Virus record (IMG/VR): IMGVR_UViG_2880372215_000003
Length of the DNA: 52,839 nt
Origin: a virus
Lineage: Duplodnaviria; Heunggongvirae; Uroviricota; Caudoviricetes
Reading direction: 5' to 3' (one strand)
The number at the start of each line of letters is the position of its first letter. Position 1 is the stretch's first letter. Positions 27,001 through 30,000 of the stretch are shown here, in pieces. The position numbers are program-made.

Positions 27001-30000
27001 AAAATGACGGCTGAAATTGTCTGTTCGGTGTTCCGTGTCCCGGCCTACAAGATTGGCGTTGGCCACCCGCCTTCCAGTGACAACGTGGAGGCGCTGGAGC
27101 AGCAGTATTATTCCCAGTGTCTGCAGACGCTGATTGAGTCCATTGAACTGTTACTGGATGAGGCGCTGGAAACGGGGGAAAACGAGAGTACAGAATTTGA
27201 TGTCACCACGCTGCTGAGAATGGACAGTGAGCGGCGCATGAAAACGCTGGGGATGCGGTGAAAAATACGCTTCTCACGCCCAATGAGGCCCGTAAACGGG
27301 AGAACCTGCCGCCCCTGGCCGGCGGTGATGCACTGTATCTTCAGCAGCAGAACTACAGTCTGGAGGCGCTGTCCCGTCGTGATGCCCGTGAGGATCCGTT
27401 CGCGTCTGCCGGGAAAACAGTTTCATCACAGCTGCCTGACGGCGCATCTGACGGTAATAAGGCAATCAGTGAAACAGAGCATGATGCGGTGAAAGCGATG
27501 TTCAGGGGGATACTGAGAAAATGACGGAACGGGAACTGTCCATTATTCGTGCACTGGGAGAAGAATTTTCCACAGTGCTGGCGGATTTACAGCGCACATT
27601 TGAGGGGAAGATGGCCTCGCAGGCACAAGCGTTTGAAGAGAAACTGACTTCCCTGTCGGCGGTATTACAGAAGCATGTGACGGTGGATGAGGTGCGTCCG
27701 GTTCTGCAGGCGATGGTGGATGACGCTGTGGGGGCCATTCCGGTACCGCGTGATGGTCGTGATTATGATCCGGATGTACTGCAGCAGGCGGTGAATGATG
27801 CGGTCGCAAATATTCCGCAGCCGGCGGACGGTAAAAGTCTCACCCCGGATGATGTGCGTCCGATGCTTGAACAGATGGTGAAGGAGGCTGTAAGCCATAT
27901 CCCTGTTCCGCGTGATGGTCGTGACTACGATCCGGAAGTACTGCAGAAGGCGGTGAATGATGCGGTCGCAAATATTCCGCAGCCGGCGGACGGTAAAAGT
28001 CTCACCCCGGATGATGTGCGTCCGATGCTTGAACAGATGGTGAAGGAGGCGGTAAGCCATATCCCTGTTCCGCGCGACGGTCGTGACTATGATCCGGAAG
28101 TACTGCAGAAGGCGGTGAATGATGCGGTCGCAAATATTCCGCAGCCGGCAGACGGTAAAAGTCTCACCCCGGATGATGTGCGTCCGATGCTTGAACAGAT
28201 GGTGAAGGAGGCGGTAAGCCATATTCCTGTTCCGCGTGATGGTCGTGACTACGATCCGGATGTTCTGCAGAAGGCGGTTCTGGATGCGGTGAGTGCCCTG
28301 CCGGCTCCGCAGGACGGGCGTGATGCCACGGCACTGGAAATACTCCCCGCCATTGACGATCAAAAATCCTTTCCCCGGGGCACGTATGCCACACACCAGG
28401 GCGGACTCTGGCGGGCGTATGAAAAAACGCACGGGATGCGGGGATGGGAATGCCTGGTTGACGGGGTGGCGGATATTGACGTCAGCATGACGGGTGAGCG
28501 GTTGTTCTCTGTGGTGGTCCGGCAGAGCAGTGGCCAGCGTACGGAAAAAACATTTTCCCTGCCGGTGATGCTCTACCGCGGTGTGTTCAGAGCCGGTGAA
28601 ACCTACCACCCCGGCGATACGGTGACGTGGGGGGGCTCGCTGTGGCACTGCAACAGTATGACCGAAGATAAACCCGGAGAAGCTCATTCATCAGCCTGGA
28701 CCCTGGCTGCAAAACGTGGGCGGGATGCAGGAGGCTGAAAATGACGGCATTACTGACACTGGAAGAGATCAAGGCACATCTGCGTGTCGACCATGACGCG
28801 GATGATGACATGCTGATGGACAAGGTTCGTCAGGCTACCGCCGTGCTGCTGGCCTACATTCAGGGCAGCCGGGATAAGGTGATTCGTGAGGACGGTGAAC
28901 TGATCCCGGGCGAGGCATTAACCCGGATGAAGGGGGCTGCCATGCGACTGACCGGGATGCTGTACCGGAATCCGGATCTTGCGGAGCGGGAAGAACTGAT
29001 TCAGGGGGAGCTGCCGTTTTCTGTTTCCGTGCTGATTTACGATTTGCGTTGTCCGACGGTGTTATGAGGAGGGGGAATGGCAATATCTGCAGGTCGTCTG
29101 ACACAGATGATAAGTGTTCTGAACCCGGTGTTAACCCGTAACGCTGCCGGAGAAATGACGGAAGAATGGGTGTCATGCGGGAAAATTCATGCGGATATCC
29201 GGGGCAGGAGCAGCCGGGAGCGGATGCAGTCCGGTGCGGAAATGGCGCAGGCGGAAATCCGCATCTGGGTGCGCGGTCAGTCCGGTCGGGAAATCACGGC
29301 AGCGTCACGACTTCATGTGCTGAGTGGTCCCTGGCGTGACCGGATCCTGAACGTTGTCGGGCTGCCCGTGCCGGATGCGACCGGCGGACGTCTGGAAATT
29401 CTCTGTCGGCTGGGAGGGGAAAAATGATCGAAACCCTGCTGGATTTTTCGGGGCTGGAGGACATCAGCCGCGATTTGCAGCTTCTGAGTGGTGCGGAAAA
29501 TAACCGGGTGCTGCGTGAGGCAACCCGTGCGGGTGCGAATGTGCTGAAAGAAGAAGTGGTGTCACGGGCACCGGTACGCAGGGGAAAACTGCGCCGCAAT
29601 GTGGTGGTCCTTTCCCGGCGCTCCCGCGATGGCGGGATGGAATCCGGTGTCCATATCCGTGGTGTTAATCCGGACACCGGTAACAGCGATAACACCATGA
29701 AGGCGGATAACCCGCGCAATGCTTTCTACTGGCGGTTTGTGGAAATGGGGACCGTGAATATGCCACCGCACCCGTTTGTGCGCCCGGCGTTTGATGTGCG
29801 CAGTGAACAGGCAGCTCAGGTGGCGATTGCGCGGATGAACCGGGCCATTGATGAGGTACTGAGACGATGACGGAGGCGGATTTGTATCCTTATCTGGCGC
29901 ATCTTGCCGGCGGGCAGGTGTACCCGTATGTGGTCCCCCTGCTGGATGGCAGGCCGTCGGTGGCGCTTCCGTGGGTGGTTTTCAGCCTGATTTCATCGGT

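Follow-up and report, generated by a model that had tools for sequence, protein, structure and literature searches.

An in-frame variable-number tandem repeat in a conserved portal-adjacent gene of an Escherichia coli O157:H7-type lambdoid prophage

Introduction

Near-identical tandem repeats within a phage head-module gene raise the questions of what protein carries them, whether their number varies, and what such variation would mean for the virion. An array of this type is present in an Escherichia coli O157:H7-type lambdoid prophage (IMG/VR virus record IMGVR_UViG_2880372215_000003), the full 52,839-nt stretch of which is referred to here as the window. The array lies within a 405-aa open reading frame (ORF), whose product we call the repeat protein, between the portal and connector genes (Table 1). 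We report that it is an in-frame variable-number repeat, and that the gene containing it probably encodes a conserved accessory structural protein of an HK97-like head module, coupled to the portal. A run of five or six G residues just upstream toggles the E. coli locus between an ancestral two-gene arrangement and a derived portal-fusion ORF.

Organization and variation of the repeat array

Tandem Repeats Finder run on the window places an array at 27746–28278 with a period of 162 bp, 3.3 copies, 95% matches and no indels (score 982), which is far beyond chance expectation. An earlier note on this DNA had described 3.3 copies of a 171-bp repeat encoding a 57-aa unit at 27742–28330; its coordinates and copy number hold, but the period is 162 bp, and in the frame of the 405-aa ORF one unit comes to 54 aa. 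The unit is acidic, as that note had it, with an isoelectric point (pI) of 4.6 and 10 Asp plus Glu residues versus 6 Lys plus Arg. Pairwise comparison of the three full units gives 7, 10, and 5 nt differences, and those between units 2 and 3 are synonymous only. Each unit is composed of a 25-aa sub-unit A (PVPRDGRDYDPEVLQKAVNDAVANI) and a 29-aa sub-unit B (PQPADGKSLTPDDVRPMLEQMVKEAVSHI) that are related to one another, which accounts for a second, weaker Tandem Repeats Finder row over the same DNA with a period of ~75 bp. A degenerate B-type unit lies 5′ of the array, and 3′ of the full units a diverged half-length A-type unit and a terminal motif form the junction to the C-terminal domain.

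The number of repeat units differs among related prophages. For the census, 343 viral loci were ranked by how closely they resemble a query with three units and the best 80 were used, which biases its frequencies towards three units. The arrays follow the plan (AB)nA plus the terminal motif, always in frame and with only whole AB units, and n ranges from 1 to 6: one unit in one Stx2c phage, two units in 18 related loci, three in 47, four in 8, five in a single locus, and six in 2. Partial proteins with four to five units are also present in the protein database. The array thus consists of near-identical head-to-tail units whose number differs among homologous loci, as expected of a variable-number tandem repeat, and the copy-number variation anticipated in the earlier note is real.

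Over 94 distinct units the ratio of non-synonymous to synonymous polymorphism (pN/pS) is 0.135, and the repeat units are under purifying selection. Units of the same locus differ by 8.5 nt, versus 13.6 nt for units of different loci, a sign of concerted evolution; the earlier proposal of a recent expansion is likewise supported. The array therefore encodes a constrained peptide while the number of its units changes by gain or loss of whole units, probably through unequal recombination or slippage between near-identical copies.

Homopolymer runs of the window differ in length at several places, and its genes for endolysin, portal, and tail-tip J are broken (see below), which raises the concern that misassembly produced the repeat or its copy number, or that the ORF is a decaying, functionless pseudogene remnant. 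We attach hardly any weight to this explanation: the same 3.3-copy sequence is found in two independent assemblies, the Sanger-sequenced Sakai prophage Sp9 and NCCP 15739, the units are under selection, and the family is conserved across Proteobacteria.

Two further candidate features of the region were rejected. An antisense ORF (27665–28687; 340 aa) is a shadow of the repeat, with selection acting on the + frame. Pfam matches to TetR_C_35, DUF4244, Glycos_trans_3N, FliG_N, and Maf_N in the repeat region are treated as helical-repeat artefacts because they have either no significant individual stretch or a short helical one that recurs with each unit. Promoter and terminator scans of 25900–29200 gave nothing exceeding the shuffled expectation.

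Fusion and separation of the portal and repeat protein genes

Although the 405-aa ORF looks free-standing in the window, it and two upstream ORFs are colinear on a single family, PHROG 2271 ('portal protein'; 859 positions), and one 859-aa 'portal' coding sequence occupies the same place in Sakai Sp9 (ECs_1795), phage 2851 (gp59), and NCCP 15739. The first ORF corresponds to residues 1–364 of ECs_1795 and is ended early by a frameshift; the portal reading frame is broken because one G is missing at 27249–27252, a run that is G5 in 41 of the 41 related loci where it was found. Between 26100 and 28800 the sole differences between the window and Sakai are this G5 to G4 change and a G6 to G5 change at 27505–27509. 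Compared with NCCP 15739, the closest complete genome, 20 kb of the window differs by the same two G deletions and a T5 to T4 change at 39637, with zero substitutions. Two further G-run deletions relative to Sakai are present in the head region, at 18616 and 21446, the first of which breaks the endolysin gene.

Single-nucleotide G or T homopolymer deletions relative to the near-identical genomes (Sakai Sp9 and NCCP 15739) thus lie at 18616, 21446, 27249–27252, 27505–27509, 31708, and 39637, and the genes broken by such deletions are those for endolysin, portal, and tail-tip J. From the alignments, homopolymer under-calls in the assembly are the most likely source of the window deletions. The three-ORF look of the fused gene, and with it the apparently free-standing 405-aa ORF, results from two single-G deletions, and the lineage of the window carries a fused portal-repeat gene. 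The earlier note's placement of the gene between portal and connector is hence right for the ancestral position of the family, and has to be amended for this prophage, in which the gene is probably fused to the portal.

The state of the junction was scored in 80 related viral loci, and junction haplotypes were counted in 5426 complete E. coli genomes. Run length and gene arrangement are perfectly matched: 31 of the related loci combine G6 with one fused ORF, and 45 combine G5 with two genes. In G5 loci the TGA of a complete portal ORF shares bases with the ATG of the gene that follows (ATGA), and the repeat protein is separate; in the window the ATG at 27521 overlaps the portal TGA at 27522–27524 in this way, and the start Met of the 405-aa ORF matches that of stand-alone homologues. 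With G6 the run, located 12 nt upstream of the start codon, joins portal and repeat protein into one 859-aa ORF with the predicted junction peptide ...AMFRGDTEKMTER. Among the complete genomes, the exact junction haplotype of the window is present with G6 in 747 and with G5 in 28, and an Sp10-type split haplotype, one single-nucleotide polymorphism from that of the window, is present in 339.

We conclude that the two-gene arrangement is ancestral and working, and that a 1-nt insertion, derived and very common, gives rise to the fusion. The two-gene state is taken to be ancestral because the genes are separate in isolated phages (Salmonella phage FSL SP-016 and Rhizobium phage RHph_X2_26), in Sanger-sequenced Sakai Sp10 (portal ECs_1974, 454 aa, and ECs_1975, 407 aa, with a 4-nt overlap), and in 78 of 80 species-level prophage loci, and because, of 149 family representatives inspected, 148 stand alone. 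All morphogenesis functions of Sp10 were scored intact and it transfers to K-12, and the portal and head functions of Sp9 were scored defective (Asadulghani et al., PMC2669165). The 'defective' portal score of Sp9 may well refer to the fusion.

A programmed −1 ribosomal frameshift at the G run was considered and is unsupported because the run is conserved only within an E. coli-like clade. G5 is restricted to E. coli-type, Pantoea gossypiicola, and Phytobacter loci, the junction reads AGAGGA in other Enterobacterales, and the sequence is unrelated in other classes; the run is also not a canonical in-frame X XXY YYZ heptamer. A second, independent in-frame fusion of portal and repeat protein is present in a Candidatus Pantoea communis locus (L115, coordinates 3616–7347; protein P0217, about 1240 aa), and has another type of repeat, 'LPxPEPLPDI + helix'.

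A widespread family at a fixed position

The 405-aa protein is a member of PHROG 1289, matching it at full length including the conserved C-terminal domain, and corresponds to the C-terminal half of PHROG 2271 (E-values of 1e-196 to 1e-276 for the two). Members of the family include Sakai ECs_1975 (Sp10) and ECs_1795 (Sp9, fused), phage 2851 gp59, and FSL SP-016 SP016_00155. The window protein shares with them the start Met, the (AB)nA plan, the C-terminal domain, and the gene neighbors, and differs only in copy number and in its local frameshifts. It is to the fused alleles that the family owes its database label, 'phage portal protein'; the 405-aa part lacks a portal domain and gives no match to PF04860 or TIGR01537 in Pfam and NCBIfam, the portal match of the fused Sakai protein is confined to residues 45–388, and solved portals align to residues 41–420 only.

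An exhaustive profile search identifies 5554 representative homologues at 50% identity, 643 of them with E < 1e-30. The general plan is an N-terminal amphipathic helix, from 0 to at least 16 'PxPxDGxD + helix' modules, and a C-terminal domain of ~130 aa, in which nearly all of the invariant residues lie; those kept in the window protein are G266, R286, G308-W309-E310-C311, G365-D366, W393, and K398. Many homologues end in collagen-like GXY tails or tail-fiber-type modules. In E. coli roughly one complete genome in five (1246 of 5426) has the gene, often in several copies, and among these genomes are those of the long-tailed Stx1 and Stx2c phages. In the protein database many homologues carry the accession PF28083.1 on their C-terminal part, and a recent Pfam family may therefore cover the domain.

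The gene order is almost invariant in prophages of alpha-, beta-, and gamma-proteobacteria: large terminase subunit (TerL), protease and major capsid protein (fused or separate), portal, repeat protein, gp6-like connector, and head closure. The slot between portal and connector is occupied in this way in 78 of 80 species-level loci, and likewise in Sakai Sp10, FSL SP-016, and the Rhizobium phage. In most loci the portal stop and the repeat protein start overlap, by 4, 8, 14, or 1 nt. Such an overlap would provide translational coupling and expression at a low, portal-like level, and because of it we infer that the protein has a similarly low abundance.

Three other observations concern this neighborhood. 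The order of TerL, protease/capsid, and portal is unusual among HK97-like modules. In the window the protease and major capsid protein form one 645-aa ORF with a coiled-coil linker (24012–25949), and they are separate genes in beta-proteobacterial relatives. The window repeat protein ends in ...RDAGG* (405 aa; GGCTGA, at 28730–28743), whereas in many relatives GGCGGAAAATGA gives ...RDAGGGK* (407 aa) with the stop overlapping the connector ATG.

Table 1. Features of the portal and repeat protein region of the window (coordinates are those of the whole 52,839-nt stretch)
Feature	Coordinates	Strand	Evidence
Portal gene fragment 1, 366 aa, HK97-family portal domain	26161–27261	+	PF04860 E 5.5e-73; PHROG 2271 positions 1–364
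G4 run (G5 in relatives)	27249–27252	.	Alignment to Sakai, phage 2851, NCCP 15739
Portal gene fragment 2, 88 aa, C-terminal tail	27258–27524	+	PHROG 2271 positions 367–451; PHROG 12 positions 401–464
G5 run, fusion/split switch	27505–27509	.	Related loci and complete genomes
Portal-coupled repeat protein ORF, 405 aa	27521–28738	+	PHROG 2271 positions 455–859, E 1.2e-276; PHROG 1289 E 5.4e-196
Predicted N-terminal long alpha-helix, aa 3–50	27527–27670	+	AlphaFold2, pLDDT 88–96
Degenerate B-type unit, VTVDEVRPVLQAMVDDAVGAI	27677–27739	+	5′ of array; translation and motif scan
AB array, three 162-bp units, variable-number part	27740–28225	+	Relatives with 1–6 units; pN/pS 0.135
Full repeat units 1, 2, 3	27740–27901, 27902–28063, 28064–28225	+	Translation in frame
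Diverged half-length A-type unit	28226–28300	+	3′ of full units
Terminal PAPQDGRD motif	28301–28324	+	With 28226–28300, junction to C-terminal domain
Conserved C-terminal domain, predicted all-beta, aa 275–405	28343–28735	+	AlphaFold2 all-beta 275–400, pLDDT 92–98
Putative CBM5/12-like part, last ~45 aa of C-terminal domain	28589–28720	+	
gp6-like head-tail connector gene	28741–29067	+	PF05135; synteny; conserved 3′ neighbor

Predicted structure of the repeat protein

An AlphaFold2 model of the monomer, made with a 100-sequence alignment, predicts a long N-terminal helix and an all-beta C-terminal domain, both with high predicted local distance difference test (pLDDT) scores (Table 1), separated by a segmented stalk of nine helices of 13 or 17 residues with 12-residue loops between them (pLDDT 55–75). 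In this model each 162-bp unit would add two 'helix + 12-residue PxPxDG(K/R)(D/S) loop' modules to the stalk, and gain or loss of units would alter its length and leave the end domains untouched.

The last part of the C-terminal domain resembles carbohydrate-binding modules of families 5 and 12 (CBM5/12). Pfam PF02839 (CBM_5_12) scores 21.1 bits in the window protein and 21.9–24.8 bits in five homologues, relative to a gathering score of 26.2 that none reaches. Foldseek gives weak matches to tail fibers of Agrobacterium phages 7-7-1 and Milano and of cyanophage A-1(L), and also to CBM modules; against predicted viral structures it returns proteins annotated as collagen triple helix repeat, CBM5/12, ChiC_BD, and tail protein (E-values 1e-8 to 1e-4). 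Searches of solved structures, with the single protein and with a family profile, found portals for the N-terminal half only, and designed helical repeats or CBM12 modules for the rest. Known CBM5/12 chitin-binding modules include those of Serratia ChiB, the Streptomyces ChiC chitin-binding domain (2d49), the CBM12 of a Vibrio chitin deacetylase, and the Anabaena contractile injection system baseplate protein All3316. Unlike these, the repeat protein has a single Trp at the 'WW' position (W375-H376), and the putative module sits inside a beta domain of ~130 aa whose first part matched nothing.

Possible roles at the portal vertex

We favor, with modest confidence, a reading in which the virion holds the repeat protein in low copy number as a fibrous part of the portal vertex (a neck or head fiber), the repeat number sets the length of its stalk, and its conserved beta domain recognizes either a glycan or a conserved partner. 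This reading draws on the sequence comparisons and the structural model, and the virion location, oligomeric state, and ligand are what we infer from them. A fiber is suggested by the structural matches to tail fibers and by the collagen-like or tail-fiber-type ends of homologues. T4 fibritin (wac), a segmented coiled-coil neck whisker, offers a tentative analogy, with helical segments joined by short loops, one end domain, and a gene beside neck/connector genes; it differs in that the two have no sequence or fold match and that fibritin has neither near-identical tandem units nor a CBM-like domain. Tape measure proteins and tail fibers are alike in that in-frame changes of whole-unit copy number alter the length of an elongated protein, the difference being that the gene described here belongs to the head module and is coupled to the portal.

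Several points weigh against a fiber. The stalk is modeled with only moderate confidence (the pLDDT values above, and a predicted template modeling score, pTM, of 0.40 for a monomer), the CBM5/12 match is below the Pfam threshold, and Foldseek against the PDB gives weak E-values (1e-3 to 0.1). Across E. coli, Sphingomonas, and Variovorax hosts the C-terminal domain is conserved more strongly than any other part of the protein; such conservation would be unusual for a host-specific receptor-binding tip and fits better with a universal ligand or a conserved phage partner. The C-terminus of HK97-fold portals normally faces the capsid interior, so an external fiber could not work from the fused form, which phage 2851 and no fewer than 747 complete genomes carry. 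Literature and structure searches found no experimentally characterized member, solved structure, or paper on the family, and no literature description was found of the repeat, its variation, or the G-run switch.

The main rival reading is an internal head protein bound to the portal crown, a positional analogue of SPP1 gp7/Mu gpF or of the P22 portal barrel, which may exit with the DNA, whose CBM5/12-like domain may bind periplasmic peptidoglycan, and for which the fusion may be a functional variant. The position directly after portal, with overlapping stop and start nearly everywhere, is as in SPP1 gp7 and Mu gpF, where portal fusions occur too, and agrees with this, as do the in-frame fusions to the C-terminus of the portal that have arisen twice independently (in the G6 allele of E. 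coli and in P0217), the very high frequency of the fused allele (including the published phage 2851), and conservation of the C-terminal domain across hosts sharing one peptidoglycan type. However, the likeness to SPP1 gp7/Mu gpF is one of position: the 405-aa ORF has no Pfam match to their family (PF04233, minor head protein) and its predicted fold is entirely different. The collagen-like and tail-fiber-type modules and tail-fiber structural matches point to an exposed fiber instead, and a single inserted base at an overlapping stop and start makes a fusion trivially, so that the fusions are weak evidence of a physical link. Portal function was moreover scored defective in the fused Sp9 and intact in the split Sp10 (PMC2669165), if that score is indeed due to the fusion. 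We consider this internal reading rather unlikely.

More doubtful still is a reading in which the family is a hitherto unrecognized virion component particular to this head module, a segmented coiled-coil protein docked on the portal, with its length tuned by the repeats, and slippage between G5 and G6 in E. coli switches it between a free subunit and a covalent fusion. If true, this would be a phase-variable portal appendage that alters particle-glycan interaction or DNA delivery.

The earlier note had proposed a decoration or scaffold-like protein, for which Pfam, PHROGs, and NCBIfam offer no supporting match and against which the overlap with the portal stop argues by implying low abundance. 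A head assembly factor, either scaffold-like or a length determinant of an elongated head in which the repeat number sets a capsid dimension, is improbable. The middle part of the protein is helical, acidic, and elongated like scaffolding proteins, and elongated heads have been reported for phages that might carry this module, namely PhiESI (related to FSL SP-016) and long-tailed Stx1/Stx2c phages (PMC12029490, PMC8065619, bioRxiv 10.64898/2026.03.17.712176). Prophage length shows no trend with repeat number, however, being 51.4 kb with one unit, 50.2–57.1 kb with two, and 48.3–57.8 kb with three, and the repeat was accordingly rejected as a head-length ruler. A CBM-like beta domain and collagen tails are also not features of scaffolds, no scaffold family in Pfam or PHROGs matches the 405-aa ORF, and the coiled-coil linker between protease and capsid protein could itself act as the scaffold.

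A decoration protein covering the capsid shell seems more improbable again. It would account for the location of the gene in the head module and for an acidic, repetitive product, and glycan-binding domains do occur in some decoration proteins. But the 405-aa ORF matches no decoration family in Pfam, PHROGs, or NCBIfam, and the gene is coupled to that of the low-abundance portal rather than to the capsid gene, whereas a shell-covering protein would need to be made in hundreds of copies.

Other features of the prophage

The J host-specificity gene of the window (37075–40543) is split into three ORFs of 462, 438, and 296 aa. The frameshift near 38394 (CC versus CCC in Sakai Sp9) is common to NCCP 15739, where the gene is annotated 'frameshifted', and the T-run deletion at 39637 is found in the window only. 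The tape measure protein (31733–34582) is 949 aa in the window and in NCCP 15739 versus 1026 aa in Sakai Sp9, an in-frame difference of 77 aa that would predict a shorter tail.

Three tRNA genes lie upstream of the late region (14210–14459), one with a CAT anticodon and the others Arg-TCG and Arg-TCT; Sakai Sp9 has only two in the equivalent position. The CAT-anticodon tRNA is called Met by ARAGORN and ileZ in the Sakai annotation. Downstream of the tail fiber genes is a cargo region (43146–47158) with a DUF1076 (NleG-like) gene, nleG7, a fragment of an IS256-family element, and an ISEc8 (IS66-family) transposase, these genes being named by identity with the NCCP 15739 annotation.

Implications for the family and its hosts

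Hundreds of public genomes contain the sequence described here, and its family has been catalogued yet is unnamed and mislabeled 'portal'. Variable in-frame repeats are a known kind of element in elongated structural proteins of phages; the gene that hosts this one is uncharacterized, portal-adjacent, and strikingly well conserved. Its homologues extend across proteobacterial prophages with no function assigned, and the strict order of portal, repeat protein, and connector makes the family a well-defined candidate for a new component of the portal vertex.

At the E. coli locus a single G turns two genes into one, so that annotation pipelines and pseudogene calls are unreliable there, and the fused allele may mark prophages that depend on a helper prophage. 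The 162-bp array is a natural length polymorphism that could confuse short-read assemblies of enterohemorrhagic E. coli (EHEC) prophages, or could serve as a marker to distinguish them. If the long-tailed Stx and PhiESI phages carry this head module, it may build prolate capsids.

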